A stretch of DNA of 63,342 bases, the filler included, from Basidiobolus ranarum (lineage: Eukaryota), in NCBI GenBank assembly GCA_040143965.1. It is 48 parts of 48 records of this genome, joined end to end, with 100 filler letters (N's around TTAATTAATTAA, not from the genome) between each part and the next. Parts side by side here need not be neighbours in the genome. Positions count along the whole stretch, not along the records: positions 43,687 to 44,905 come from JASJQH010012826.1; 47 more parts are not named here. The stretch is one strand, 5' to 3'. Made by a program: the position numbers and the translations under genes. The notes below the pieces were generated by a model that searched no databases, was not told where the DNA came from, and was given only the letters and a program-made list of their open reading frames with translations. Positions 5,314-63,342 of the stretch are shown piece by piece (position 1 is the first letter of the stretch; each line of letters starts with the position of its first letter).

Positions 5314-6540
5314 CCAGTTTTTTTGATTAGAGAAATATTGAGAGGCTCCAGAATCAATATACCACAACCTACAGTCTTGCTCAGAGGTCACTGATAGGGC
5401 AGAAATGAATAAAACTTCCTCTTTGGATGAAACCTAATTTGCTTGTTCTGACTTCTCATTTTTGTTGCAATTTCTTGATTTGCAATCTTTTAACTGGTGT
5501 CCGGGTTTGTTACAACCATAGCATAAACCTGGTTTCCTTCTTCTGTAACCTTTGTACTTGTCAAAGCTACAATTTCCAGCTCCAAAAAAAGCCACTTCCT
5601 CAGATTTGTATTCCAAATTCTTACTTTTGAGGTGTTGCTCTATTAGTCTTGCCATCACAAACTCCACAGATAACTTATCCAATGTTGCTTCCAAAGCTGT
5701 GACAAAGGTTGCATACTGTTCTGGCAGACTACTTAGAAGAGTCATAATGACATCATCTTCCTGTAAAGTTGCACCAATATTTTCCAGTTGTTTTGTCAAA
5801 GATCTCACATTTGCAACATGAGTAACCGTGCTTTCAGACTTTTCCATATTTATATTCAAAAATCATTGTCTGAGAAAAAGTCTATTAGCATGACTCTTTG
5901 CTTCATAACACTCTTCCAATATAGTCCAAGCTTGATGGGCAGTCTTTGCATATTGAATGTTCACAAGTTGTGAATCATTCAAACTTTGACAAATGACATT
6001 AAAGACCTTATTGTCTCTTTTCTTGTAAGCTTCCATTAAAGAAAGGTCAGAAGGTTCCTTTTCAGCTACAGAGACTACATTCAACATCTCTCTCTCTTCC
6101 AACATGTTGGCTTCTTGAACTTCCAGAAATTGTAATATTCTCCATCAAGATTTTCAACATTTGAATTGACAAAAGTGGTAGTAGTGGCTTCTATCATGCT
6201 GTAAAGGATAGAAGATTGAGCTCATAATCTATTGGGAAAATATGGGCTGTTTGGAGGAACTTTAGAAAAGTGGATTTGTGAACAGCTTTTGTGAGATAAT
6301 TATTTATTATCCAGAAATGAGGCATTCATACATTTTGGTAGAAATACAGAAAACAAACATGGGGGTTGTGTTCAGAACATCTGTGGGAGTAAAATGTGCT
6401 ATTTTTTGGGCAATTTGGATGAGTTTGAAATTTTCAATATGGAATTGCCAATTCTCACATTATTCATATATATATGTATATAATACATGTACCAACTTGC
6501 AGTTAAGTGATATTTGCCAAAGTAATTCTAACTAACTTCT
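5314..6540 (-). mobile_element. Ty1/Copia family C 5' end: LTR-C (6230-6540), PBS (6217-6229), gag and protease start
   Basis: Gag motif LLSSLPEQY, zinc knuckle CYGCNKPGHQLKDC, protease WYIDSGAS; PBS GATTATGAGCTCA directly after the LTR. Confidence 0.92.
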
Positions 6541-12689: not shown

Positions 12690-13172
12690 TATTGGGAAAA
12701 TATGGGCTGTTTAGAGGAACTTTAGAAAAGTGGAGTTGTGAATAGCTTTCTGAGATACTTATTTGTTGTCCAGATATAAAGCATTTATACATTTTGGTAA
12801 AAATACAGAAAACTAACACTGGGGTTGTGTTCAGAACATCTGTGGGAGTAAAATGAGCTATCTTTGGGGCATTTTGGATGAGTTTGAAGTTTCCAATATG
12901 GATTTACTAATTCTCACATTCTTCACATATATATAATGAATGTTCCAATTTTCAGTTCAGTGATATTTGACTAAGTAATGTTAACTAACTTATATGTGAT
13001 ATATGAAATAGTTGGGTGTATAAAGATAGAGATAACAAGTATGATACAGACAATAAACTTTAAATCTCCTATTCAACTAAATATTCATGTATCTTAATCC
13101 TAACTTAAATCTTAATTCTTCAAATTTTGGTTTGGGTAATGGTTTGGTAAGGATGTCAGCAATCATGTCCTC
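12690..13172 (-). mobile_element. Copia family C 3' end (RNase H tail and LTR-C) inserted into Copia-A RT
   Basis: DMIADILTKPLPKPKFEELR followed by LTR-C, matching 6230-6540. Confidence 0.85.
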
Positions 13173-13272: not shown

Positions 13273-14497
13273 ACTCCTGCCATCAGTAAACTTGGAGGTT
13301 TTTGTGGGCACAATGCACTATCTTGCTGTAGATTTTGTCAAATCAATGGAGTTTACTCTAACAGGCATATGCATTACTACTATTCAAATACAACACTACA
13401 CTTCATCATTTTACCATCAAGAGCCCGGTCAGATCTCTACATGATCACTGATATCAATTCACCAAGTAGTCAGTCTAACATCAAACTTGGTATTTGCTGT
13501 AAGCCTAAGATTACATTGCTAAAGGGGATCACTTGGAGCCAGAGCTTCCCATTAGGCACTATGCACTTACCATTCAACAACATTTCAATACCAATCACTC
13601 AGCTATATAGTGGAAAATTCAATATGAATGAGCCATTGAAGATAGGATCAAAGTTTGAATCAATTGTGAAAATGGTTGAAAACATCAAGATATCATCATA
13701 TTTTACCAGGACTCCCATCAATATCCACTCATCTAAGTGTTTATTCAAATGCAAAGACTGGAAGTATTCGATTTGTATATAATCAAGTGGAATTTTGAAA
13801 CAATTTCTGCCTGATAAATATTGGCAACATTGGGAGTTGTTTGTGGATATTGTTAATATATTCTTGTGCCATCAACTCACATTAGCAGATCTCAGGCAGA
13901 TACAGCAACTATGCAAAGATTCTGTAATTAGATATGAAAAACTAAATTACAGATTTAAAGAAGATAGATTGAATCTATGTTGGTATCCTATACATTCCCT
14001 GCTGCATCTTTCACCATGCTTAGAGATTATAGGCCCTGGCTATACATTCCAGGTGTTCCCAATGGAGTGCACCTGCAGTGAAGTGATGCTCAGTGTGAAA
14101 TCATCACTACTACTCTACGCTAATCTGATTAATAATGTATCAGTAAAAACAGTGATGGATGTAATGCAATGGGTTAAAGAGACTCCAGAGCATATGAACC
14201 TTCCAACAAATGGCTCTTTTCAATTTACTCATGGGTTTTAACATTGTTTGATCACAATTTTGACAACAAAGCCCAATCCATAGACACAGAGTAAGTACCT
14301 CAATAATTCAGCCCAATTTGTTTGTGTAATAATCTGACAGTATTTCTAGGAAAGCTGCAAGACAGACTTCTTGGTGAGATAGATGAAGATATGCAGTATT
14401 ATTGTTTTAGCCATGGGGTAATCTATTCAAGCAATGACACATCTACTTGTGGCAGGACATTTGTTGACTGCAAGTCGGGGATATATTGGCTGAATTC
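13273..14497 (+). pseudogene. CMC transposase core to C-terminal region
   Basis: PAISKLGGFCGHNALSCCRFC, FKCKDWK, IHSLLHL, VFPMEC. Confidence 0.9.
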
Positions 14498-17759: not shown

Positions 17760-18395
17760 CAAGGGCCCAATTCATCTGGGATTAAGACACAAATATTCTT
17801 ATGCAAATAAGGATCTAATTAGGCTTAGTGATGCAGATTGGACATATGATTTTTAGGTCAGAAGATCTATCACTGGATATAACTTTCTCTATAGTGAATC
17901 AGCCATATCTTGGAATTGCAAGAAACAACCCACTGTAGCACTTTCAACTACTGAAGCGGAGTACATGGCAGCATCACATACAACAAAGAAGGCTATTTGG
18001 TGAAGGAAACTGTTCAAAGATTTATGCATTTTTCAAAGTTCATCCACCCTAACTTTCAAGGATAATTAAAGTTGTATTTCTTTAGCTAAAAATCCCAAAT
18101 TCTATGCTAGAAGTAAGCACATTGATATTCAACATCACTTTGTTAGGGAAGCTAATGAGAATAAGCACATCCAACTAGAGTACTGTCCAATTGAGGACAT
18201 TATTGCAAAAATACTTACCAAGCCATTACCCAAACCAAAATATGAGGAATTAAGATTTAATTTAGGATCAAGATATGCAAATATTTAGTAGAGTGGGAGT
18301 GTTGAAGTTTATTTTCTTTGTCATATTTGTTATCTCTATATTTATACACCTAACTATCTCATATAGCACATATAAGTTAGTTAACATTACTTAGT
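17760..18395 (+). mobile_element. Copia family C RNase H, PPT and start of 3' LTR
   Basis: [40 protein letters not shown] then TGTTGAAG at 18300. Confidence 0.9.
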
Positions 18396-18571: not shown

Positions 18572-19795
18572 GGTTGTTTCTTTGAATTCCAAGAAATAGC
18601 TCCATTACAGCAAAGAAATAAGTATCCTGTTGTAGATCTCCTGTCTTCAATATCTCTTCCCCAATTTGCATCTGAATATCCCATCAGATCAAAGTTTGAT
18701 CCAGAATATGTGTATTTTAAGCATAGATCCACAGTACCTTTCAAATATCTGAAAATCTGCTTAACTGCTATGATTTGATCAGATCCATAATTTTGAAGAT
18801 ATTGGCACATAACTCCCACAGAATATGCAATATCTGGCCATGTTCCAACCATGATATACATCAAACTACCAACCATAGATTGATAAGGAAATTTCTGGCT
18901 TTCATTTGAATCCAAGAACATCTGATTTGAGCCATTTTTGGTCAAGTTAAGATTTGTCTCCATTGGGGTAGATACTGGATTACATTCTTCCATTTTACAC
19001 TTCTTTAGTATATTTAAGATATACTTAGACTGGTTTAAAGTTATTGCTTTGGTAGTTTTATCTATCTTAATATGGATCCCAAGATAGTACATCAGTTCAC
19101 CTATATCAGTCATTTTGAATTCAGCAGATAAGCTGGATTTGGTTTTCTCCAAAGTCTTCAAGTCATTGCTTGCTATAATAAGGTCATCTACATATAAGGC
19201 TAATAAAACTGGGTTAGTCTTATCTGGCCTGAAGTAGATACTATAGTCAGCATTGCTCTTTTTGAATTTGGGTGTTTCTAAAAAAGCATCAATCTTGCTA
19301 TTTCAAGCTCTCAGAGATTGTTTTAAGCCATGGAGTGTTTTCCAGAGTCTGCAAACTTTTTTAGGGTTTTCTGGGTCCACAAATCCATCTGCTGGTCCAT
19401 ATAGATCTCCGCAGCAAGCTCACCATTCAAACAAGCTGCTGTAACATCCATTTGATGTATAATAAACTGATATTTAGCTGAAACTGCTAAAATCAATCTA
19501 ATTGAATTAAACTTTGCTACAGGAGCAAAAGTTGCTGTGTAATCTATTCCTGGTGTTTGGGAATAGCCTTTGGCTACTAGTCTAGCTTTGTACCTTTCTA
19601 TATTGCCCTCAGAGCTGTATTTGACTTTAAACACCTATTGGCAGCCAATTGATTCTCGATCATCAGGTAAGTTGGTTAAAATCTAAGTTTGATTATCAAT
19701 CAAAGCCTGGTACTCATCAGCCATTGCAGATCTCCAAAATTTTGTGTGAGGGCCATTCAGGGCCTCTTTTACAGTCTGGGGTTCATGTATTTGAG
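18572..19795 (-). mobile_element. Ty1/Copia RT-RNase H (family A)
   Basis: [30 protein letters not shown]...RRSTTGY. Confidence 0.95.
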
Positions 19796-26512: not shown

Positions 26513-26935
26513 TTTTTCAGAAGAAGGAAAAGTTCCATAAATTTGAGAAGTAGACATTACAGAGAGTGCAAGCTTGGGACTCATAACCTGTTAAAGTATT
26601 TGGGAGCCTGTTGGAAGTGGTTTAGAGAATTAGAGGTATTGGTAGTTTCACTTATTGATTTATTGAATAGAAAGTTCACATTTGTAGTTTTGTCAAGATG
26701 TAGACAAACTAACATGTAGAGTGTGCTGAGGAAGGTCCCAGGAACATGGGTGCAAAGTTTAGGGCTTCTAGCACAAGTTCGAAAAGTTTATATATCTGAG
26801 AACTTCTAGGTTGGTAAACATATTCTGAGTAAATTCCAATTGAGAATAATTGATAATATCCTAGTGATTTAACAGATAACTAAGTACTATGTTATATATG
26901 ACTACATAAGTATTTAGGGAATGCTAATTTCAACA
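26513..26935 (-). mobile_element. Copia-A 5' LTR (26589-26935) with PBS and gag start, nested in LTR-C (26936-27176)
   Basis: On the minus strand TTTAACA is followed by GGTTATGAGTCCCAAG; matches 54364-54790. Confidence 0.88.
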
Positions 26936-27176
26936 GTGTTCAGAATATATGTGGGAATACAATGAGCTATCTTTGGGGCAATTTGGACAAGTTTGATGTT
27001 TCCAATATGGAATTGCTAATTCTCACATTATTTACATATATATACAATAAATGTTCCAATTTTCAGTTAGGTGATGTCTGACTAAATGATGTTAACTAAC
27101 TTATATGTGATACATGAAATAGTTAGGTGTATAAAGATAGAGGTAACAAATATGATCAAGACAATAAACTTCAACA

Positions 27177-27835: not shown

Positions 27836-28375
27836 CATCTTTACAACAATCTAGAACTCCAACTGGCTGCTAGAGGGGTGCATCCGGTATCCAAGATACA
27901 TAACACCACTGAATATAACCATAATGTATCACTGGGTAATTTTCTGGGTGTTCATGCACGAAGAGGGGATTTCATCCGTTACAATTGGCTAGGGGATCTT
28001 GCTACTGTGGAAGCATGGCAACAGGCGATGGTGAAGCTGATAGACTTGGCGAAATCCAAGAAGGGGTTGCAGGTATTTTACCTTGCTTCCGATGAATCTT
28101 CACTCGATGCTTATGATGATCTCTACAAGCATGGTATGATTCGAATCTTTGACTTAATGGATCCGGAGTTTATATCCGAGTATGCCCAATTAGCAACGTT
28201 TGGGGATTGGTTAGCACTATTAGATCAACAAATCTTAGCGCAGAGTGAATTTTTTGTTGCTACTTATTTAAGTTCCGTAAGTGGAGGTATTTTAAATATG
28301 AGAAAAGGCTTAGGAGTGAATGATGGTCCCGTCACAAGAGAATGGATGCATACGTTGTTAAAGGAAATCGATTAG
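27836..28375 (+). CDS. GDP-fucose O-fucosyltransferase-like glycosyltransferase, 3' fragment
   Basis: FLGVHARRGDF, FYLASDE and LLDQQILAQSEFFVATYLSSVS match the three fucosyltransferase-type motifs. Confidence 0.75.
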   Translation, partial: HLYNNLELQLAARGVHPVSKIHNTTEYNHNVSLGNFLGVHARRGDFIRYNWLGDLATVEAWQQAMVKLIDLAKSKKGLQVFYLASDESSLDAYDDLYKHGMIRIFDLMDPEFISEYAQLATFGDWLALLDQQILAQSEFFVATYLSSVSGGILNMRKGLGVNDGPVTREWMHTLLKEID

Positions 28376-33123: not shown

Positions 33124-34054
33124 TCTTGATAAATTCTCAATACATCCATACTCAAAGATATCCATTGAGAGCTCTAGACTTAAGACACTATGAATGAAGC
33201 TTTCATTATTTTTTGAATGTGCAATAATGTCTAAAAGTACTTTTCTTAAACATACCACATAAGTAAAATAAACTGTTTCCAAAATGGGAAATAGCACCAT
33301 GCTGGATAGTGCCCAATCATGCCAATTTGTGCTGGCACACTTTTTAGCTGGCCTGATCTGGCTCAATAAAATGGAACAAGTCTTATGAATTCAAATACAC
33401 TTGCATGCCATTATTAATGTATTTTGGGCCAAGTATGCCAGCCTCACTGTGAATCAAAATCAGATTACATCATAGTGCAATTGGTCACTCCACAAGCACA
33501 TGCTTTGCTTGTTGAATGTATAAATACAATGGACTTAGTCAGCTCATATACTATCTGGTGCAAGCTGTTGGTTGTCATGACCCGGTCCTATATATTACAG
33601 TTGGATACTATAAGAAACAATATGAGGCCATTCCACCATCATTGGACACAATAATCTTTTTGGAAATATAGTTCCAGCTTGTACCAAGTTACCCAATTTA
33701 GCATTTCCAAATTAAAATTTTAGGCAACTGACAATGCCAGTTCATTCTCTAGTTTGAAACTGACCAATTATTGAATGTTAAACAATAAATAATTTCTACT
33801 GTAACTTACCCAATCAATTATATAACCAAGACATTTGCAAGTTCAAGGGCATTCATATTGATGAATGTAGGCAACTAGCAACTCATTATTGAGTAATTAA
33901 TTTGTTCATATTGTTATTATTTAGCACTCAAATCTGCCTTTAACAAATGTGTGTTTATTGCTCTAATTGATTGAAATATCAGTTAGATCACTTTTATCAA
34001 TTCTCACTATTTTCTCAAAACTTCCTCAAATCAACTCCTATTTTCACCCAGGCT
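33124..34054. mobile_element. PIF/Harbinger-like element end (...TTTTCACCCAGGCT|TAA)
   Basis: Shares sequence with 921-1107 and with 47176-47353; both visible termini abut TAA/TTA. Confidence 0.6.
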
Positions 34055-34057
34055 TAA

Positions 34058-34344
34058 AAATCATGTTTTTTATAAACTAAACATGTCCAATAGTTCTAAT
34101 TTGTGGTAAACTTTAAATAGGACATATGCAAGTCAATAAAAACTAAGTATGTAATTCATAAATCCAAAACTTGTCTGACACTCTTCCAAACCCCTTAAAT
34201 ACTTTTATCAGGTTATGGGCCACGTGCCAGCTGTTAAAAGAGTGTATACCAGAACTAGTACCAACGTTTTTGCATCCACAGAGAGGTTTGATGGTGAAGA
34301 CTTTCATCTTTGGAAGTTCAAGAAGCAAATGGTGCTAGAAGACA
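34058..34344 (+). mobile_element. Copia LTR 3' part, PBS (from 34211) and gag start
   Basis: TTTATCA followed by GGTTATGGGCCAC; ERFDGEDFHLWKFKKQMVLED. Confidence 0.82.
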
Positions 34345-39727: not shown

Positions 39728-40656
39728 TGATTGGCAACTGTTGCCTGCCACAGACCTGGTACAAGTGGAAAACACTTTTCAATCAAATGACCTATGATCC
39801 TTCAGTAGTTAAACTACCTTCATGTCCAAATGGTTGTTTGGCATTCACTGGTGATCTGAAAAACCTGAAGTCATGTACTGTTTGCACATAATTGGCAACA
39901 CTGAATTAGGTAAATATCATTCATATTTGGCTTTCATACCAATGATTTGCCATGTTAAAGTTTTGATGAAATCACCAAAATATAGATCATTGATCCAATA
40001 CCAAAGTACTCACCATAAAGTTGATGGTATTACCAATATACTTGATGGATATCACTACCAGAATGTGAAAAGTCAAGGTTTCTTTGAGAACATGTATGAT
40101 CATGCATTTGCATTGGCTCTGGATGGTTTCTCACCAAACAAATATTTCATTGGAAAGGCTTGCTGGCCAATAATATTGATCAACTTTAATGATCCTCCTT
40201 CTGAATGGTGTAAGAGTCATAATATTTTGATACTATCCATCATATCTATACCTAAATCACCAGTGCTTATAGATAGCTTCATGGTGCCTTTGATTGTGGA
40301 ATTTGAATGGTTATCTAATGGTGTTCAGATGGGTGAGTATTTTATAAATTCTAATTTCATTGTATGTATTGGTGACACTCCTGCCATCAGTAAACATAGA
40401 GATTTTTGCAGGCACAATGCACTATCATGCTGAGATTTTGTCAAATCAATGGAGTTTACTCTATCTGGCATATGTATTACTACTATCCAAATACAACAAT
40501 AAGCTCCATGATTTTACCATCAAGAGCCCAGTCAGATTTCAACATAATCACTGATATCAAATCACCAAATAGTCAGTCTAACATCAAACTTGGTACTAGC
40601 TATTAACCTAAGATTATATTACTAAAGGGGATCAGCTGGAGCCAGAGCCTCCCATC
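39728..40656 (+). pseudogene. CMC transposase core, followed by an LTR-C insertion (about 40657-40947)
   Basis: ALALDGFS...CWPIILINFNDPP...DSFMVPLIVEFEWL...IGDTPAISK. Confidence 0.9.
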
Positions 40657-43586: not shown

Positions 43587-43728
43587 NNNNNNNNNNNNNN
43601 NNNNNNNNNNNNNNNNNNNNNNNNNNNNNNTTAATTAATTAANNNNNNNNNNNNNNNNNNNNNNNNNNNNNNNNNNNNNNNNNNNNCTAAGTATTGTTAA
43701 CTAACTTTTATATGATATATGAAATAGT

Positions 43729-44010
43729 TATTGAAATTATTTAGGGAGAAATATTGGTCTGGCCTGGATTTGCACCTGAGACGTCCTTCACTCTAGCAAG
43801 GTGCTCTAACCACTGAGCTACTAGTCCTTGTATGCTATGCCTATATTGCTAGGGAACTTTGACCTAGTCGCTTAATTTATGGTATTTTGGCATTTCAGCT
43901 ATACAAGCAACTGATTGGCATCAGACTTTGTGTTCAGATGCAGTCACCATACTTCATATTTTCCTCTTTGGGAATTACTGCTTGTATCACAAGTCACCAG
44001 ACTTTCAACA
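43729..44010 (-). mobile_element. 282-bp solo LTR-like element with 5-bp TSD ATAGT, inserted in LTR-C and containing a tRNA-like sequence
   Basis: TATTGAAA...TTTCAACA flanked by ATAGT at 43724-43728 and 44011-44015; empty site GAAATAGTTAGGTGT at about 27116; second copy starts at 47424. Confidence 0.87.
43755..43827 (-). tRNA. Degenerate tRNA-like cloverleaf (pseudo-tRNA, isotype unresolved)
   Basis: GGACTAG-TA-GCTC AGTGGTTA GAGC-A-CCTTG CTAGAGT GAAGG-ACGTC-TCAGG TGCAAAT CCAGG-CCAGACC-A; canonical spacing, perfect D stem, several stem mismatches. Confidence 0.75.
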
Positions 44011-44118
44011 ATAGTTAGGTGTAGAAAGATAGAGATAACAAATATGATAAAGATAATAAACTTCAACACTCCTACTCAACTAAATGTTCTTGTATATTGA
44101 TCCTAACTTAAATCTTGA

Positions 44119-44905
44119 TTATTCAAATTTTGGCTTAAGTAATGGTTTGGTAAGGATGTCAGCAAGCATGTCCTCTGTTGGAGAGTACTGCAGTTGGACA
44201 TGCTTATTCTCAATAGCTTCCCTAACAAAGTGATGTTGAATGTCAATGTGCTTACTTCTAGCATGAAATTTGGGATTTTTTGCTAAAGAAATACAACTTT
44301 TATTATCCTTGAAAATTATGGTGGGTGAACTTTGAGAAATGTCCAAGTCTTTAAACAGTTCCATTAACCATATAGCCTTCTTTGTTGTATGTGTTGCTGC
44401 CATGTACTCTGCTTCAGTTGTTGAAAGTGTTCTGGTAGGTTGTTTCTTTCTATTCCAAGATATGTCTGCTTAACTATAGAGAAAGGCACATCCAGTGATA
44501 GATCTTCTGTCCTCAATATTACATCCCCAATCTGCATCACTAAACCCAATTGGATCCTTAGTCTCATAAGAATATGTGTATTTTAATCCCAGATCAATTG
44601 TCCCCTTCAAATATCTGAAAATCAACTTAACTGCTACATAATGCTCAGATCCTGGGTTTTTCACATGTTGGCTTACTACTCCTACTACAAAAGAGATATT
44701 GGACTGGGTTCCAGTCATAGCATAGATCAAGCTACCTGCCATAGATTGATAAGGGAACTCATGGCTTTCAAATGACATATTTTGAGCCATATTTAGGTGT
44801 TTTTCATCATTTCTGATGGGATTTTTGACTAGTTTCACACCTGGATCCATGGGAGTTGCTACTGGCTTATGATTCTGCATTCTGTAAATCTGAGAGTATC
44901 TGAGA
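44119..44905 (-). mobile_element. Copia family C RT-RNase H
   Basis: YQSMAGSLIY, GFSDADW...RRSITG, SKHIDIQHHFVRE. Confidence 0.95.
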
Positions 44906-45005
44906 NNNNNNNNNNNNNNNNNNNNNNNNNNNNNNNNNNNNNNNNNNNNTTAATTAATTAANNNNNNNNNNNNNNNNNNNNNNNNNNNNNNNNNNNNNNN
45001 NNNNN

Positions 45006-45072
45006 TAGCATGGCCCCTGCACAAGGATGACACGTAAATCTTGAGTGGACACCTCTTCGGAGGAAATTTTTT
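45006..45072 (+). ncRNA. U6: U6 snRNA, 3' half (5' part cut by the contig edge)
   Basis: TAGCATGGCCCCTGCACAAGGATGACAC is the conserved AGC triad and internal stem-loop; ends in a T6 Pol III terminator at 45067-45072. Confidence 0.92.
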
Positions 45073-46324: not shown

Positions 46325-47175
46325 CTTATAACAGAATTCTGCCTAAGCATATACATCATCATTGGAAGTGTTCCACCAGTTCTGTGGCTTATTTCTCCTT
46401 CTGGATGATCTTCTGAGTCCTGATTCTACCTTTAATGTATTTGGGACTTCATTTTGGTTGAACAGGGCTCAGATACAACTGGAACCTCATCAGACACTTC
46501 CTGAATAGTGTTGATTCTGTTTTCTGGATCCAGCGCTGTGATTTGAGATGGAAAATATGCTTTTTTGTCAAAAATAACATTTGTGCACTTGATTAATTTT
46601 TGTTGTTTGTTATCAAAAAGTCTGTAAGTCTTATATCCATCAGGGTAACCAAGAAATATGCATTGTCTGCTTTGGAGTTCCAATTGAGAGCCTTTCTTGA
46701 GCTGGATTTAAGCAACATGCTGTGCAATCAAAGATCCTGATATGATCTACACTTGTTTATGGGCCATATATGGCTTCAAATGGAGTAGAATTTTGTAGCA
46801 ATTTTGTTAGGCATCTGTTGTTGATATGGACCAAAGTGGAGACAGATTTAGCCCAATATTGGTAATCTAACCTTGGATTATGTCACATTGATCTTGCCAT
46901 CTCTAATATGGCCCTGTCAGCACATTCTGCAACTCAATTTTGCTGTGGACTAAAAGGCACAGTAGTTTGTTGCTTGATTCCAGATTTAGAACAAAAACTA
47001 GTAAAGTCTTTAGAGTAATTTTCTGCTCCATTAGCAAACCATAGTACCCTTAGTTTTTGTGCTGATTCTTCCTGTACCATTGATTTGTAGTGCTTAAGTG
47101 TAGCTAAGGCGTAAGGTTTTTATTTGAGACAGAATACCCAAGTATATCTTGTTTTGTCATCAATAAAGGTCATAA
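46325..47175 (-). mobile_element. Ty1/Copia integrase core and SH3-like region
   Basis: FMTFIDDKTRYTWV, PFSPQQN, CIFLGYPDGYKTYRL. Confidence 0.9.
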
Positions 47176-47353
47176 AGCCTGGGTGAAAATTTGAGGTGAT
47201 TTGGAGAAGTTTTGAGAAAATAGTGAAAATTGGTAAAGTGATCTGATTGATACTTCTATCAATTAGCGCAATAAACACAAATTTTTGAATGGCAGAGATT
47301 AGTGCTAAATAATCAGAATAGAAACAATCTAACTACTAAATAATGAGTTGCTA
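47176..47353. mobile_element. PIF/Harbinger-like element end (TAA|AGCCTGGGTGAAAA)
   Basis: Reverse complement of 33877-34054; interrupts Copia integrase. Confidence 0.62.
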
Positions 47354-47423
47354 TTAATCTAATTCCAACAACTTGCACATGATTGATTTCCTATCAGGGG
47401 CACTATTTTTGCTACCAGTTAAA

Positions 47424-47543
47424 TGTTGATAGACCCGTGACTTGTGGTACAAACAGTAATTCCCAAAGAGGAAAATATGGAGTATGGTGACTGTATCTGA
47501 ACACAAAGTCTAAGGCCAATCAGTTGCGTGTATAGCTGAACTG
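47424..47543 (+). mobile_element. Second, truncated copy of the tRNA-bearing LTR
   Basis: TGTTGATAGACCCGTGACTTGTGGTAC... matches the reverse complement of about 43895-44010; cut before the tRNA part. Confidence 0.85.
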
Positions 47544-50021: not shown

Positions 50022-50440
50022 GTAATAGGTGTATATTTGAATAGAAAGTGCATCAGTTATGAGGGTTAACGGATACTAGCACCTAGACACCTAAATATCT
50101 ATATCCTTTGTGAGTGTTCTAAAATTCCGTGATATTCCAAACAATACAGTACAACATTGTATAAAATAATGTATACGTANNNNNNNNNNNNNNNNNNNNN
50201 NNNNNNNNNNNNNNNNNNNNNNNTTAATTAATTAANNNNNNNNNNNNNNNNNNNNNNNNNNNNNNNNNNNNNNNNNNNNTCAATAGCATCATTAGATTTA
50301 GCAGCAGTCCGAAAAAGAATCGATTGTATTGCTGTTATTGTATCTGTATATATATACATTCTGCTTCCAACTCATATAAAAGTAAACCCCAGATAATTAC
50401 ACGACTGTATTACATATCACTTCCTGTTCTCACTATCAAC

Positions 50441-51496
50441 ATGGCCTTCAACCCACCACCAACGATGACCACTACTAACGGTGACCCCGTTGAAGACAAC
50501 CAGAACAGTATGACTGCAGGCCGCAAGGGACCGATAGTACTTCAAGATTTCCATTATGTTGAGAAGCTTGCTCACTTCAATCGCGAGCGTATCCCAGAAC
50601 GTGTTGTTCATGCCAAAGGAGCTGGAGCCCACGGTTACTTTGAAGTAACTAAGGATATCTCGCATCTCACCAAGGCCAAATTCCTCTCTGAAGTAGGTAA
50701 GCGCACACCAATTTTCACCCGTTTCTCCACTGTTGGAGGAGAGAGTGGATCAGCTGATTTGGCTCGTGATCCTCGCGGTTTCGCAGTTAAATTCTATACC
50801 GAAGAAGGAAATTGGGATATGGTTGGCAACAACACACCAATCTTTTTCATTCGTGATCCCATCAAATTCCCTGACTTCATTCATACTCAGAAGCGTAACC
50901 CCAAGACCCATCTCAAAGATCCTGATGCTTTCTGGGATTTCTTGAGTCTGTCACCTGAGACAATTCACCAAGTGCTAGTCTTATTTTCCGACCGTGGTAC
51001 TCCTAAAGGTTTCCGCCACATGAATGGTTACTACGGCCATACACTGAAGTTGGTTGATAAAGATGGCAACTTCAAATATGTCAAATGGCACTTTAAGACA
51101 GATCAAGGTATCCAGAACTTCACACGCGAAGAGGCTACCAAGATGGCTGGTGAGAACCCAGACTATGGTACCGAGGATTTGTATAATGCCATTGAGAAGG
51201 GTGATTATCCATCATGGACAGTACATATTCAAGTCATGGAGCCTGAGCAAGCTGCTAGCTATCGTTTCGATCCTTTCGATATTACCAAGGTGTGGTCTCA
51301 TAAGGACTTCCCTCTTCAAGAGGTTGGTAAGATGGTATTGAACAGAAATCCCGAAGATTACTTTGCCGAGACTGAGCAAGTAGCATTCTCACCCTCCAGT
51401 ATGGTTCCCGGTATTGAACCTTCTGTTGACAAGATGTTGCAAGGAAGAATTTTCGCCTATCCTGACGCCCATCGCTACCGTTTAGGTCCCAATTTC
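50441..51496 (+). CDS. Monofunctional heme catalase (small-subunit type), 3'-truncated
   Basis: [56 protein letters not shown] at 50441; no intron in the visible part. Confidence 0.97.
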
Positions 51497-51596: not shown

Positions 51597-52813
51597 CTGA
51601 AAAACCTGAAGTCATATACTGTTTGCACATAAGTGGCAATGACTGAATCAGGTAAATATCGTGCATATTTGGCTTACATACTGTTAATTCCCCATCTTAA
51701 AGTTTTGATGAAATCACCCAAATATAGATCATTGATCCAATACCAAAGTACTCACTGTAAAGCTGATGTTATTACCAATATACTTGATGGATATCACTAC
51801 CAGAATCTGAAAAGTGAAGGTTTCTTTGAGAACATGTATGATCATGCATTGGCATTGGCTCTGGATGGTCTCTCACTAATCAAATATACCATTGGAAAGG
51901 CTTGCTGGCCAATAATTTTAATCAACTTAAATCTTCCTCCTTCTGAACAGTATAAGAGTCTTAGTATTTTGATACTATCCATCATATCTGGACCTAAATC
52001 ACCAGTGCTTATAGATAGCTTCTGGGAGCCTTTAATTGCAGAATTTGAACTGCTATCTAATGGGGTTCAGATGGGTGAATATTTAATTAAAGCTAATAGC
52101 ATTGTATGTTTTGGTGACATTCCTGCCATCAGTAAACTTGGAGGTTTTAGCGGGCACAATGCACTATTTTGTTACAATATCTCCATTAAAGCTCACCATT
52201 GTACTAATGTTGGTGATTCATCATTCTTCCAGCTATCTGGCAGATACCTAGCAATATTGTGCCACTCTGTATCAAGTTCTTCCCAAATATTTGGACATAC
52301 AACATTAGACTGAATTTGAAGTGAAATGTTTGTCATCGGAAGTCATTTTCTGCATACTTGTCCCGTGTTTTTTCCTTTTTATTCTAGAAAATGATTCTGA
52401 GGCACTTTTACTACTTACATAACTCCTTGCAGTTTGACACAACTAAGGTTGTTTTCTGGTATTTGTGTGGCTTTTTGTTTGCCTTTAAGTCTGTGGCTAA
52501 TTTCAACAATTTGAAAAGTACCAGTGGAGGTTGGAGAGCCATGTGTTTTATTAGTTGGAGTGTTAGCTTGTTGGGAGCTGCCAGGTGTTATATAAACTTC
52601 TACCTCTTACAAAAATAAAATTGATTTGATCCGGATCGGATCCACCCTCCAAAATAGCAAAACCGTCAGAGAACCGTCACAATATCTTTGGCTTGCATTC
52701 TGCCAGGGATTTTGATGATGTGATGGCGGTTTCTTGATGGTAACTTGGCGGTATTCATACATGTTAAAATATTGATCCTCAAACTTGGCATGCGTTATTC
52801 AATATCCAGCAAT
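51597..52813. mobile_element. CMC transposase core (plus, to about 52170) fused to ORF2 (minus, to about 52603), then a nested terminus at about 52604
   Basis: LALDGL...CWPIILINLNLPPSE...SGPKSP...GDIPAISKLGGFSGHNA; ORF2 homology; CTCTTACAAAAATAAAATTG terminus. Confidence 0.87.
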
Positions 52814-52913: not shown

Positions 52914-54130
52914 AAAACATATACAAACATCTACTATCACAAAGAGGTAGTGATATCCATCATCAATGGTTGTGAAAGGTCCAGCTAGATCAATAGCAAT
53001 ATGATCCATAAGGAGTTCAGCATTTATTGCAGTCAAAGGGTGAAATCCATGGTGTGTGATATTGTTAAGTTGACATTCTCTGCAAGACTTTACACAATCA
53101 AGGCAGTCAGACTTGATGTTGGGCTAGTGTATCCATTAGAGTGCAACTTCTCCACAAGTGTATTGGCTCCAAAGTGTCCTGGTAGGTGGCATTGCTGAAT
53201 GAGATTGTTCCTTTTGTTTTGCCATGGGCAAATTCTGGAATCTTGGTCTTGCTGAGATATTGAGTTGGTAGTAGCTGTAAGTTTGCTGATTACATCATTA
53301 ATCACATGTACCTTCCAGGGGGAAGTTGGAAAAATTCTGGAAAGGTGATCAGGTAGAACATCAAGAATTCCAGGGTGGTGAATTATTGTATAATCATAAC
53401 CCAGTAGAGTATCCAGCCAGTTGGTCAGCATTGATGCTGGAGTTTTCTGTGTATGAACGTAGACAATTGCCTGGTGGTCAGTGTAAAGAGTAAAATGACT
53501 TCCTCAGAGATATTGATGAAAATTCTTGAGGGCAAACATAATGGCTGGTAATTCCTTCTTGGTAGCAGAATAACTACATTTAGCAGGCTGCAAAGATCTA
53601 GCTTGGAAAGAAATCCAATGAGGTGGATTTTGGTCTTCATCCTGGTAAAGAACTGTCCCTAACCCAACATTAGATGCATCAGTAGCAACAAAGAAAGGCT
53701 TGGAAAAGTCAGGATAAGATAGAGTAGGAGCTTGGGGAAGCATTGTGCACAGTGAATCAAAGGCTTGATCATGTACTTTGGTCCAAACTGAGGGTAGATT
53801 TGGGTTATGCCGTAAGGAATTGAGTGATGCACTTAGCGATGAGAAAAGTGGCATATGTTCCCTGAAATAGTTGAAGACTCCAAGGTAGTGTTGAAGTTGT
53901 TTAGTGGCAGTGGGCTTAGGCCAATCCTTAATGTTGACCAACTTGACAGGATCCAATTGGTGGCCGGTAGGAGTAACAATAAAACCAAGTAGGTTGATTT
54001 TAAGGCAAGCAAAGCTACATTTTCAGCATTCAGGATAAGTCCAGCAGAAGTAAGATGGTTGATAATATCAGTAACATGGGTTGCATGATCAGCTCTATTA
54101 GTTGAGAAAATGATAACATCATCAACAAAC
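52914..54130 (-). mobile_element. Ty3/Gypsy RT-RNase H-integrase start (second family)
   Basis: FVDDVIIFS, YLGVFNYFR, ATDASNVGLG, YSATKKEL, CHLPGHFG. Confidence 0.95.
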
Positions 54131-62027: not shown

Positions 62028-62127
62028 NNNNNNNNNNNNNNNNNNNNNNNNNNNNNNNNNNNNNNNNNNNNTTAATTAATTAANNNNNNNNNNNNNNNNN
62101 NNNNNNNNNNNNNNNNNNNNNNNNNNN

Positions 62128-62710
62128 ATCCACTTGGTAGTCTGGAAACTGCTTGAACAACACATTGTGTGGTAGCTAATCTGGTAACGTTGTGTCCGAG
62201 TGCTTCCAAAGATTTAATGCAATGTTCAACGTATTGTGACTCTACAGTCACTTCATCTGGCATTAGCTGATGATGAGCACGAGGTGCAGCAATTGCTTTA
62301 TCGACACTTCCAGCCAAATCATATATATTGAGAATGGCTTGGATGGTTGCCGTTGTTATGTAACTACCACCACTAACACCCACTGCTAAAGATGGATACC
62401 CGTCGGTCTCTACTATGGTTGGTGACATGGAAGAGAGTGGACGTTTACCGGGTTGGATAAAATTGTCTGGCAATGGAAGGAACCCGAATGCATTCACCAA
62501 TCCAGGTGAAGAGGAATCATCCATGTCATTATTAAAAACAATACCAGTTTCATGATCCATAACTTTAGATCCAAATTCAAGATTGATAGTGGTGGTCAAA
62601 GCCACTGCTCCACCTTCTTTATCCATGGTCAATAAATGTGCGGTACCTGGGGTAGTAACTTGGTTGGTAATATTCAACTGGAAAAGTTCTTGTGTCTGAA
62701 ATGTTACGAA
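62128..62710 (-). pseudogene. Gamma-glutamyltransferase small-subunit region with a frameshift
   Basis: GTAHL, TTTINLEFGS, NNDMDD, PGKRPLSSMSP, PRAHHQLMPD; the upstream conserved ISDTRTFPVEYYQP lies in another frame. Confidence 0.75.
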
Positions 62711-63342
62711 ATGACTTTACACATCACAATATCCAATCAAGTAGGTGGCATAATATCCAATAAGTGAGGTCAACCTTTCAATCTATGATAAACAATCTAT
62801 AATGTAATTGGTTTGAATTAGTATCGAAGAAGAAGTGGGTGGTGGAAAGAAGCACTGTAATCAGAAATATTGTGAGAAAAGTAAGCAAAGTAGGTACCTT
62901 CAAAGTAGTCTATTAAGAATGTACCTTCTATCTTGCGATTTATAGGCTCAATATCACCACTTGATATCTCGGTCATCTGACTCTGAATAAATAACCACTA
63001 ATTCATTACTAATAAGCAATGGTTGAACACATGGTTGTAGCTTTTAGCTGAAAGTATTCTGATTTGTGATAGAGAGGGCGGTTAATAAGATAGAGAAGGC
63101 GGTTACTGAGTTTCTCGAGTCTATTCCAATTGCAATAGTTCCCTAGTTCCGTATATTATCGAAGGTTTGTATCTGGGGGCTTATATTAAGTAATGATATC
63201 ACTTGAGCCAAGGAGTTTCTCAAGAATAAAATTGCTGCGTAATCCTCAACGTATTCAGCGAAAGAGAAAACGTATCGATGGATTATTCGAACTTTAAAAG
63301 GTTTTAACTTATGTAGCCAAGGTATGTACGTTGTCGGGGTAT

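Follow-up and report, generated by a model that had tools for sequence, protein, structure and literature searches.

A decayed piece of a tRNA appears to be embedded in a solo LTR that itself interrupts the LTR of another retrotransposon, in DNA whose host is probably the early-diverging fungus Basidiobolus ranarum. We give a probability of about one half to the reading that this 282-bp unit is the fossil of a solo LTR, contains a tRNA-derived module and represents a new host lineage of an element of known kind; its membership in the Helenus group of TRIMs is not established. The window, that is, the whole stretch of 63,342 nucleotides analysed here, consists of 48 unlinked contigs of ~1.2 kb, which are sorted by length and joined by linkers of the form N44-TTAATTAATTAA-N44. 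Its earlier labelling as fungal was right.

The surroundings of the unit belong to a Copia element on the minus strand. They form the start of its 3′ LTR (LTR-C, 43687..44068), which begins TGTTGAAG at 44068, directly after GAGTAGGAG (44069..44077, minus strand), a polypurine-like tract that belongs to the host Copia. The same tract precedes TGTTGAAG in the copy at 18300, and in two copies the resident LTR-C starts in this way directly after a polypurine tract. The C-terminal pol region of the host, comprising its RT/RNase H part and containing one stop codon, occupies 44125..44904 on the minus strand and shares 52% identity (E 3e-50) with the ORF at 18574-19302, which carries the Pfam domain RVT_2 (E 7.8e-26). 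The unit splits LTR-C 53 nt from its start, and the host LTR runs on to the contig end.

The unit (43729..44010, on the plus strand if its sense is taken from the second copy described below) extends from TATTGAAA to TTTCAACA, and the length of 282 bp and the ends TATTGA...TCAACA given in a preliminary description are reproduced. Exact copies of the 5-bp target site duplication (TSD) ATAGT flank it at 43724..43728 and 44011..44015. Removing the unit in silico generates an empty site that is colinear with all four other host-repeat copies in the window (12971-13172, 27082-27176 and, on the minus strand, 18394-18054 and 55175-55080). These sister copies are located on unlinked contigs and are uninterrupted, with (A/G)ATAG(T/C) aligned at this position only once in each; the empty site formerly placed at about 27116 in a sister LTR-C corresponds to ATAGT at 27119-27123. 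Because the 5-bp TSD is exact and the paralogous site is uninterrupted in four of four cases, the unit was inserted as one piece.

The two ends of the unit are inverted repeats of each other over 9 nt, of which eight are complementary. They read TA...CA, one transition away from TG, and the second copy has TG at the corresponding end. Throughout the window the motif TGTTGAAR is found 30 times against 11.2 expected, a count reached by none of 100 shuffles. A search for internal direct repeats longer than 13 nt within 43729-44010 returned none, and a complete miniature element (SMART-like, ~290 bp) was rejected for want of an internal terminal repeat. The description as a solo LTR is the best reading of this structure: it accounts for the 5-bp TSD, the inverted ends of TG/CA type, a TGTTGAAR terminus as in the resident Copia LTR, the lack of an internal LTR pair, and the PBS-like motif that adjoins the second copy.

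Inside the unit lies a 73-nt segment (43755..43827) that matches the tRNA model RF00005 of Rfam over its full length (1-71), scoring 34.6 bits where the gathering cut-off is 29, with an E-value of 0.0017 for the whole window. A cloverleaf had been proposed at the same coordinates; the covariance model recovers it above the cut-off in copy 1, as we call the unit from here on, and places it on the minus strand. There is no other tRNA match in the 63-kb window at E up to 10, and it is this combination of score, full-length coverage and uniqueness from which the tRNA origin of the segment is deduced.

The segment is nevertheless a fossil in copy 1, with a damaged box B and no capacity to act as a decoding tRNA. 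Its anticodon loop holds AGA (43792-43794), while the Rfam alignment displays four non-standard stem pairs and a short variable region that lacks the long arm of the Ser type. The T-loop reads UGCAAAU, with G in place of the near-invariant U55. Compared in the same alignment with the promoter motifs given in the available text of Kojima (2024, Biology 13:119, PMC10886601), the box A-like element TAGCTCAGTGG (43810..43820, minus strand) fits TRGCY...YGG and is intact as TAGCT...TGG, whereas the box B-like element GGTGCAAATCC (43766..43776, minus strand) has GGTGC, in this one decayed copy a single change from the conserved GGTTC. ARAGORN reports nothing at 43755-43827 at default settings and Ser(aga) when its threshold is lowered (-ps). 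Minimum-energy folding does not give a cloverleaf, and 189 of 200 shuffled sequences fold as well or better; a stable tRNA fold was rejected on the resulting z-score of +1.43. The earlier judgement that this is probably not a decoding tRNA is thus borne out by the non-standard pairs, the short variable region, the default silence of ARAGORN and the fold: a functional tRNA gene should have a cloverleaf, a proper T-loop and an anticodon that matches its body, and the segment fails on each. On its own strand no run of four or more T follows the tRNA-like part within the LTR or the next 40 nt, and the longest ORF spanning it encodes 35 aa. The tRNA-like part, together with 15 further nt, is enclosed by a 6-nt direct repeat, CAATAT (43843-43848 and 43751-43756), which could be the mark of a secondary insertion.

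A blastn search (word size 7, E up to 10) finds a single further copy of the unit in the window. Copy 2 (47424..47543, minus strand) corresponds to positions 163-282 of copy 1 with 90% identity over 120 bp, and it shares the TGTTGA boundary that had been noted at 47424, in the opposite orientation. It stops at the contig end at 47543, 64 nt short of the tRNA part, and the tRNA position is readable in one of the two LTR copies, copy 1 alone. The 10% difference between the copies amounts to about 5% per copy, which would predict ~4 changes in 73 nt, close to those seen in the tRNA-like segment.

What follows copy 2 on the minus strand is a 6-nt spacer after its TCAACA end, the PBS-like motif TGGTAGCA (47410..47417), a leader block (47175..47353) that is 84% identical to 33876-34055, and the co-oriented core of a decayed Copia-type integrase with downstream pol and many stop codons (46325..47174). 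In the other contig the leader block at 33876-34055 precedes the start of an ORF (34179-34343) that we take, from a motif, to be gag-like; Pfam found nothing on its 55 residues. Next to copy 2 the integrase core joins the leader directly, with gag, protease and the integrase N-terminus missing, and its match to Pfam rve (E 2.2e-5, 25.1 bits) falls below the cut-off of 32.6. The internal sequence after copy 2 is at least 1099 bp long, integrase remnant included. Neither a second LTR of this element nor any paired-LTR copy of the 282-bp family is seen in the window, and no polypurine tract precedes the TGTTGA of copy 2. The contig is a mosaic, and since homology to the other leader ends abruptly 70 nt from the LTR, the LTR of copy 2 could be a later insertion into it. 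As to the primer motif, TGGTAGCA occurs three times in the window, counting both strands. Its 8 bases are the same as those that open the PBS complementary to the human initiator tRNA-Met, as far as the accessible part of the source shows (PMC1797187), a comparison made with the human tRNA rather than that of this fungus and exact over only 8 nt. Given ~50 possible primer tRNAs, we estimate the chance of such a motif at ~0.01, which is not negligible.

How might this arrangement have come about? A retrotransposon integrase would have placed an LTR retroelement into the U3 part of the Copia 3′ LTR and thereby duplicated ATAGT, and recombination of the newcomer's two LTRs with each other would later have deleted its internal part, leaving the solo LTR. 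The 73-nt segment would have travelled inside the 282-bp unit; it probably stems from a tRNA gene or a tRNA-derived SINE that entered an ancestral LTR, as Kojima proposed for Helenus. We consider it probable that the family is of Copia type, with initiator tRNA-Met serving as primer through its 3′ end, and that the tRNA-like part is oriented antisense at a distance of 26 nt from the U3 edge, as a passenger rather than a promoter. The antisense placement is suggested by the PBS-like motif, the leader and the integrase remnant, which share one orientation beside copy 2 on one mosaic contig, and the role of a non-driving passenger is in turn suggested by an antisense position at the U3 edge. Points that sit uneasily with this reading are the TA at one end, the integrase match under the Pfam cut-off and the CAATAT bracket.

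Several ideas about the use of the module lose ground here. Transcription of the element by Pol III, as put forward in the preliminary description, becomes doubtful with a tRNA-like part that is apparently antisense and has no run of four or more T after it. The suggestion of a self-supplied primer finds no support either: TGGTAGCA beside copy 2 is unlike TGGTCTGG, the complement of the tRNA-like 3′ end, and self-priming by the LTR's own tRNA was rejected on this difference. Read-through copying of a primer tRNA was also set aside, in view of the absent CCA end, the location on the wrong side of the LTR and the other PBS type.

The notion of a new tRNA analogue of Cassandra has been overtaken by Helenus, or TRIMp3, a group of LTR retrotransposons that are non-autonomous and have tRNA-derived sequence in their LTRs (Kojima 2024, PMC10886601). 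As far as the available portion of that paper describes them, fungal Helenus elements have 5-bp TSDs, frequent solo LTRs with TSDs, and PBS and leader sequences related to those of Copia, and their tRNAs are predicted as Thr-AGT and Ser-AGA, with isotype disagreement and many of them unlikely to be functional. Among fungi, its Table 1 has them in Basidiomycota only, in Pucciniales and a few Agaricomycetes, and the terms 'Zoopagomycota' and 'Mucoromycota' receive no mention in the portion available. Compared with this published description, rather than with Helenus consensus sequences, the Basidiobolus unit shares the tRNA-derived segment inside a TSD-bounded LTR of a fungal host (5-bp TSD ATAGT), the non-functional state of the tRNA-like part and its lack of complementarity to the PBS, as well as internal sequence related to a Copia leader combined with LTRs unrelated to Copia LTRs. 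Unlike the basidiomycete elements, it resides in a Basidiobolus-like genome and has GGTGC in place of the GGTTC of box B. Helenus is moreover defined, in the text at hand, by a length below 1000 bp with two LTRs, a PBS and a PPT, whereas copy 1 is solo and copy 2 has at least 1099 bp of internal sequence; members of the family elsewhere in the genome may still have that architecture. That the tRNA-like part is read as a promoter in all described Helenus families, a role for which it would have to lie in sense, would argue for sense orientation here; the context of copy 2 on its mosaic contig points to antisense.

One alternative assigns the unit, as a solo LTR, to a genuine TRIM of the Helenus type whose sense strand is the minus strand (TGTTGAAAG...TTTCAATA), transcribed by Pol III and mobilised in trans by Copia, with the tRNA-like part at LTR positions 184-256 supplying internal A and B boxes. 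We regard this as unlikely, even though much in the structure fits it: a tRNA-derived segment in an LTR, an intact box A, the 5-bp TSD and a minus-strand LTR that starts with the canonical TG, as TGTTGAA like the resident Copia LTR. Common solo LTRs, Ser-AGA or Thr-AGT pseudo-tRNAs and Copia-type partners are also what the accessible text reports for fungal Helenus (PMC10886601). Against it stand GGTGC where GGTTC is conserved and the absence of a run of four or more T downstream, within the LTR or the next 40 nt. Copy 2 has no polypurine tract before TGTTGA, and its PBS-like motif, leader and integrase remnant are found on the other strand; its internal sequence exceeds 1.09 kb, whereas Helenus elements by definition stay below 1000 bp (PMC10886601, available text), and the window holds no paired-LTR copy. 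It is likewise doubtful that we are looking at a one-off composite, in which a tRNA pseudogene or fragment landed in a single copy, or its immediate progenitor, of an ordinary tRNA-less LTR of ~190 bp. The CAATAT bracket would agree with such an event, as would a tRNA position readable in one copy of two and the lack of any further tRNA match in the window. Yet what the repeats enclose lacks a SINE body, a tail (A-rich or of simple repeats) and a CCA end, unlike a retroposed tRNA or SINE, and a 6-mer repeat at loosely defined positions is estimated to arise by chance in ~1 of 10 cases. The tRNA-like part is as decayed as the age of the LTR family would lead one to expect, which fits co-inheritance, and LTR families that bear tRNAs throughout are common in fungi according to the available text of Kojima (2024, PMC10886601).

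Readings without an LTR are largely refuted, and we consider them very improbable. A MITE-like element could explain the inverted ends as 8-bp terminal inverted repeats, and fragments of a tnp2-type transposase do occur in the window, but the 5-bp TSD, ends of the TG...CA type shared with the resident Copia LTR and the PBS-like motif adjoining copy 2 all speak for an LTR. CACTA/tnp2 elements make 3-bp TSDs, which counts against the MITE too. A tRNA-derived SINE should carry its tRNA part at the 5′ end, whereas here, in sense orientation, it begins at position 184 of 282 and the unit has no tail. For a working tRNA gene there is the match above the Rfam cut-off; opposed to it are the four broken stem pairs, the G at the near-invariant U55 position, an AGA anticodon without a long variable arm, the default silence of ARAGORN and a lowest-energy fold that is no cloverleaf. 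A more specific variant of our reading appears improbable as well: Basidiobolus, which belongs outside the Dikarya, would possess its own lineage of tRNA-module LTRs, independent of the basidiomycete Helenus, in which the module, antisense at the U3 edge in an LTR of Copia type, would be kept as a TFIIIC/Pol III binding site rather than as the element's promoter, to form a chromatin boundary or to provide tRNA-targeting integrases with a landing pad.

The fossil solo LTR with its tRNA-derived module also invites comparison with other known elements. Like Cassandra and Ajax, to the extent that the accessible literature describes them, it combines a module that stems from the gene of a small RNA with an LTR spread by integrase. 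Their module is a 5S, however, and here it is a tRNA; even at E up to 10, Rfam matches nothing in the window to 5S rRNA. Cassandra further keeps a Pol III terminator inside its LTR (PMC10886601, available text), whereas none is seen in the 282-bp unit. Ty1/Copia solo LTRs such as LTR-C likewise have a TGTTGAAR terminus and a 5-bp TSD and insert into other elements in nested fashion, but the LTR-C family lacks a small-RNA-like segment and shows no similarity to the unit past the terminus. Genomic dispersal of a tRNA-related segment that is decayed but has kept box A intact also characterizes tRNA-derived SINE2 elements such as the fungal AfuSINE2, judging from the part of the source available (PMC5063351). 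SINEs, in contrast, have the tRNA head first, then body and tail, are mobilised by LINEs and make TSDs of variable length, while the unit has an internal tRNA (184-256 of 282, then 26 nt without a tail, which departs from SINE2 architecture), LTR-type ends and a 5-bp TSD. Exact-pattern scans for a 22-mer from the LTR in JGI metagenome contigs and in a collection of genome contigs, and for a 27-mer from the tRNA-like part in the former, gave 0 matches each.

Fungal LTRs that bear tRNAs have been in print since 2024, and new here is the host lineage. The present case is one decayed tRNA-bearing copy with no sign of activity. If confirmed by full-genome data, it would extend the reach of LTRs that bear tRNAs beyond Basidiomycota, to a lineage of early-diverging fungi, and such an extension would back the view expressed in the available text of Kojima that they originated repeatedly, by tRNA-derived sequence entering an LTR. 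There is a consequence for annotation, too. LTR copies of this kind inflate tRNA gene counts, as exemplified by rust fungi, for which the same text shows that they lead to false tRNA predictions by the hundreds (Kojima 2024, PMC10886601), and a repeat-rich, highly fragmented Basidiobolus assembly would be prone to such inflation. The antisense placement, if true, would provide a counter-example, in which an LTR contains a small-RNA module that does not have to be the promoter of its element.

The window consists of 48 pieces, arranged in decreasing size from 1229 down to 1215 bp and joined by 47 linkers of the form N44-TTAATTAATTAA-N44 (1230-1329, 2558-2657 and so on to 62028-62127). The joined pieces are not genomic neighbours but short unlinked contigs, so any finding across a linker is an artefact. 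Basidiobolus ranarum is an early-diverging fungus, and the intron-free catalase fragment at 50429-51496 (plus strand; piece 50280-51496), recognised by protein identity to Basidiobolus catalase A, is 98% identical to the B. ranarum protein of that name and 87% identical to catalase A of B. meristosporus. Remnants of Copia (Pfam RVT_2, Retrotran_gag_2), of Gypsy (RT_RNaseH_2) and of tnp2 transposases are abundant in the pieces. Fragments of tnp2-type (Transposase_21) DNA transposases recur at 39855-40433 and 51633-52313 (plus strand; Pfam E-values 1.3e-10 and 1.5e-14), and a third repeated fragment at 13273-13782 is grouped with these two, to which the E-values belong. Also present are a Gypsy-type RT RNase H fragment (53504-54022, minus strand, E 1.1e-28), a gamma-glutamyltranspeptidase fragment (62128-62716, minus strand, E 6.6e-58), a weak O-fucosyltransferase-like fragment under the cut-off (27836-28375, plus strand) and, at the very start of its contig, a partial U6 snRNA-like match (45004-45071, plus strand; RF00026, 31.9 bits, short of the gathering score of 44).

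The 282-bp unit that we regard as a candidate solo LTR lies at 43729-44010, has the ends TATTGA...TCAACA and is flanked on either side by ATAGT. It interrupts a copy of LTR-C, the resident Copia LTR family. On the minus strand, the C-terminal part of the host Copia pol ends near 44125 (52% identical, E 3e-50, to a window ORF with RVT_2) and is followed by a polypurine-like tract, GAGTAGGAG (44077-44069), directly after which the host LTR starts at 44068 with TGTTGAAG; the identical junction of tract and TGTTGAAG is found in the copy at 18300. LTR-C is about 370 bp long, and the unit is placed 53 nt inside it. A query without the insert, both flanks joined, has a colinear match in all four other copies of the surrounding repeat, and alignment with them leaves a clean 287-column gap and a single ATAGT site in each. 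The preliminary description was thus correct about the insertion, its ends, the ATAGT duplication and the empty site in sister LTR-C copies.

Another LTR-C copy is interrupted by a different unit, which starts with TGTTGAAATTA at 26928-26935 (minus strand). After the LTR-C copy near 6226 or 40658 (both minus strand), different putative primer sites follow, TTATGAGC and TGGGAGGCTCTGGCTCC, the former of which we take to be the complement of the anticodon loop of initiator tRNA-Met. This primer type is dominant in fungal Helenus, a class of short LTR elements, and is also found in Copia families (Kojima 2024, PMC10886601). A single LTR family, LTR-C, may be linked to two primer types.

What kind of element is the 282-bp unit? 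Its ends are of the TG...CA type and form a short inverted repeat in which eight of nine bases are complementary, and a 5-bp target duplication is the typical product of fungal Copia and Gypsy integrases. Such duplications are described for fungal Helenus and its Copia partners (Kojima 2024, PMC10886601). One end begins with the same seven bases, TGTTGAA, as the resident Copia LTR. The motif TGTTGAAR occurs 30 times in the window (for example at 18300, 26928, 44003, 44061 and 55081) against 11.2 expected, a count that none of 100 shuffles reaches. Being nearly threefold over-represented, the motif looks, from these counts, like a terminus common to several LTR families. The primer-binding-site-like motif adjoining the partial second copy also counts toward LTR identity. 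Within the unit no direct repeat exceeds 13 nt, which rules out a complete mini-element bounded by a pair of tiny LTRs. An LTR fits the unit better than a SINE, a functional tRNA gene or a cut-and-paste element does, and we hold non-LTR readings to be very improbable.

The tRNA-like part of the unit, 73 nt on the minus strand, is covered by a full-length Rfam tRNA match (RF00005) at exactly 43755-43827, the coordinates first assigned to it by eye; the covariance-model check proposed at that time, run on this single copy, gives 34.6 bits against a gathering score of 29 (window-wide E 0.0017). There are no further tRNA matches in the window at an E-value limit of up to 10. The Rfam alignment shows an intact box A (TAGCTCAGTGG). 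With a T-loop of UGCAAAU, box B becomes GGTGC where the conserved motif has GGTTC, and four non-standard pairs are spread over the acceptor stem (two), the anticodon stem and the T stem (one each). The anticodon loop is AGA (serine), yet the variable region is short, as had been noted. ARAGORN makes no call at default settings and reports Ser(aga) at a lowered threshold. Folded alone, the 73 nt form no cloverleaf (-15 kcal/mol, z = +1.43; 189 of 200 shuffles fold at least as well), and on its own strand no run of at least four T follows, whether in the remaining 26 nt of the unit or over the 40 nt beyond it. From the broken pairs, the silence of ARAGORN at default, the poor fold and the lack of a T run we conclude that this is a tRNA-derived sequence and not a decoding tRNA, which firms up the earlier suspicion. 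The two copies of the unit diverge by 10%; about 5% drift per copy would predict some four changes in 73 nt, near the damage seen, which fits neutral decay since insertion.

The second copy, at 47424-47543 (minus strand) on a different contig, lies in the opposite orientation and bears out the claim that the non-tRNA end recurs from the same TGTTGA boundary: 120 bp of the non-tRNA part are 90% identical. It stops at the contig end, 47543, 64 nt before the expected start of the tRNA-like part. The orientation of the LTR is read from this single contig. On its minus strand, the LTR end ...TCAACA is followed by a 6-nt spacer and TGGTAGCA, an 8-mer with only three occurrences on both strands of the window, which equals the first eight bases of a PBS complementary to human initiator tRNA-Met as printed in PMC1797187; the match is short, the spacer long and the primer motif that of a human tRNA. 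A 179-bp leader block (47353-47175, minus strand), 84% identical to 33876-34055, begins some 70 nt beyond the LTR; the contig is a mosaic, and this homology breaks off abruptly 70 nt from the LTR. On the other contig, some 125 nt separate the leader block at 33876-34055 from a downstream ORF with the end FDGEDFHLWKFK, presumably the region in which Copia gag usually starts; 55 residues of this gag-like ORF gave no Pfam match. On the contig of the second copy, the block runs straight into the decayed core of an integrase (rve E 2.2e-5, under the Pfam cut-off). All four parts, LTR, PBS-like motif, leader and pol remnant, share one orientation here, as in an internally deleted Copia, and no polypurine tract precedes TGTTGA on the other strand of this contig. 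Together these observations make it likely, on sequence grounds, that the LTR sense strand is the window plus strand at the complete copy and that the tRNA-like part is antisense, starting 26 nt from the U3 edge.

Helenus comprises TRIMs of less than 1000 bp with tRNA-derived sequence in their LTRs and, as TRIMp3, is grouped with Cassandra and Ajax (Kojima 2024, Biology 13:119, PMC10886601). Many fungal families are known only as solo LTRs with TSDs, and the likeness of fungal Helenus to Copia extends to PBS and leader but not to the LTRs. As a rule the tRNA-like part is no functional tRNA; Thr-AGT and Ser-AGA are frequent predictions for it, and it has no complementarity to the PBS. The proposed origin is a tRNA-derived SINE inserted into an LTR, and 'not a few' Repbase LTRs beyond TRIMs contain tRNA-like pieces (PMC10886601). 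Given this description, the interpretation in the preliminary description, a fungal tRNA analogue of Cassandra, was partly right, and the kind of element it proposes is already in print.

[quoted passage not shown] On this reading the tRNA-derived segment would already have been part of the inserted LTR, inherited from an older capture of tRNA or SINE sequence, and would be a passenger in the U3 of this LTR family, probably antisense and inert in the complete copy. A true Pol III-driven Helenus TRIM would call for the other orientation and appears unlikely to us. We are similarly doubtful of a one-off secondary insertion of the tRNA segment into this copy, to which CAATAT, present as a 6-nt direct repeat at 43843-43848 and 43751-43756 (minus strand), lends a little weight: its two copies enclose the tRNA-like part together with 15 nt upstream of it and could be the target duplication of an insertion into the LTR, with an estimated chance probability of about 0.1.

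The fungi with Helenus in Table 1 of Kojima 2024 are Basidiomycota only, and the words 'Zoopagomycota' and 'Mucoromycota' are absent from its text (PMC10886601). The literature searched on Basidiobolus and retrotransposons held nothing on tRNA-bearing LTRs, and the further literature found to name Helenus consisted only of two papers citing Kojima 2024. As far as these searches go, a tRNA-bearing LTR in Basidiobolus or any early-diverging fungus is not in print. Set against the published description, with the tRNA module read in one copy, the unit is not filed as a Helenus member because no TRIM architecture was found around either copy in the window, the sole copy that has internal sequence attached runs past the 1-kb limit, box B deviates from its conserved form and the tRNA-like part is probably antisense. 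It nevertheless shares with Helenus LTRs a tRNA module within the LTR, a 5-bp TSD, the solo state, the Copia link and a Ser-AGA pseudo-tRNA; in likeness it works like a Helenus LTR or is the fossil of something like one.
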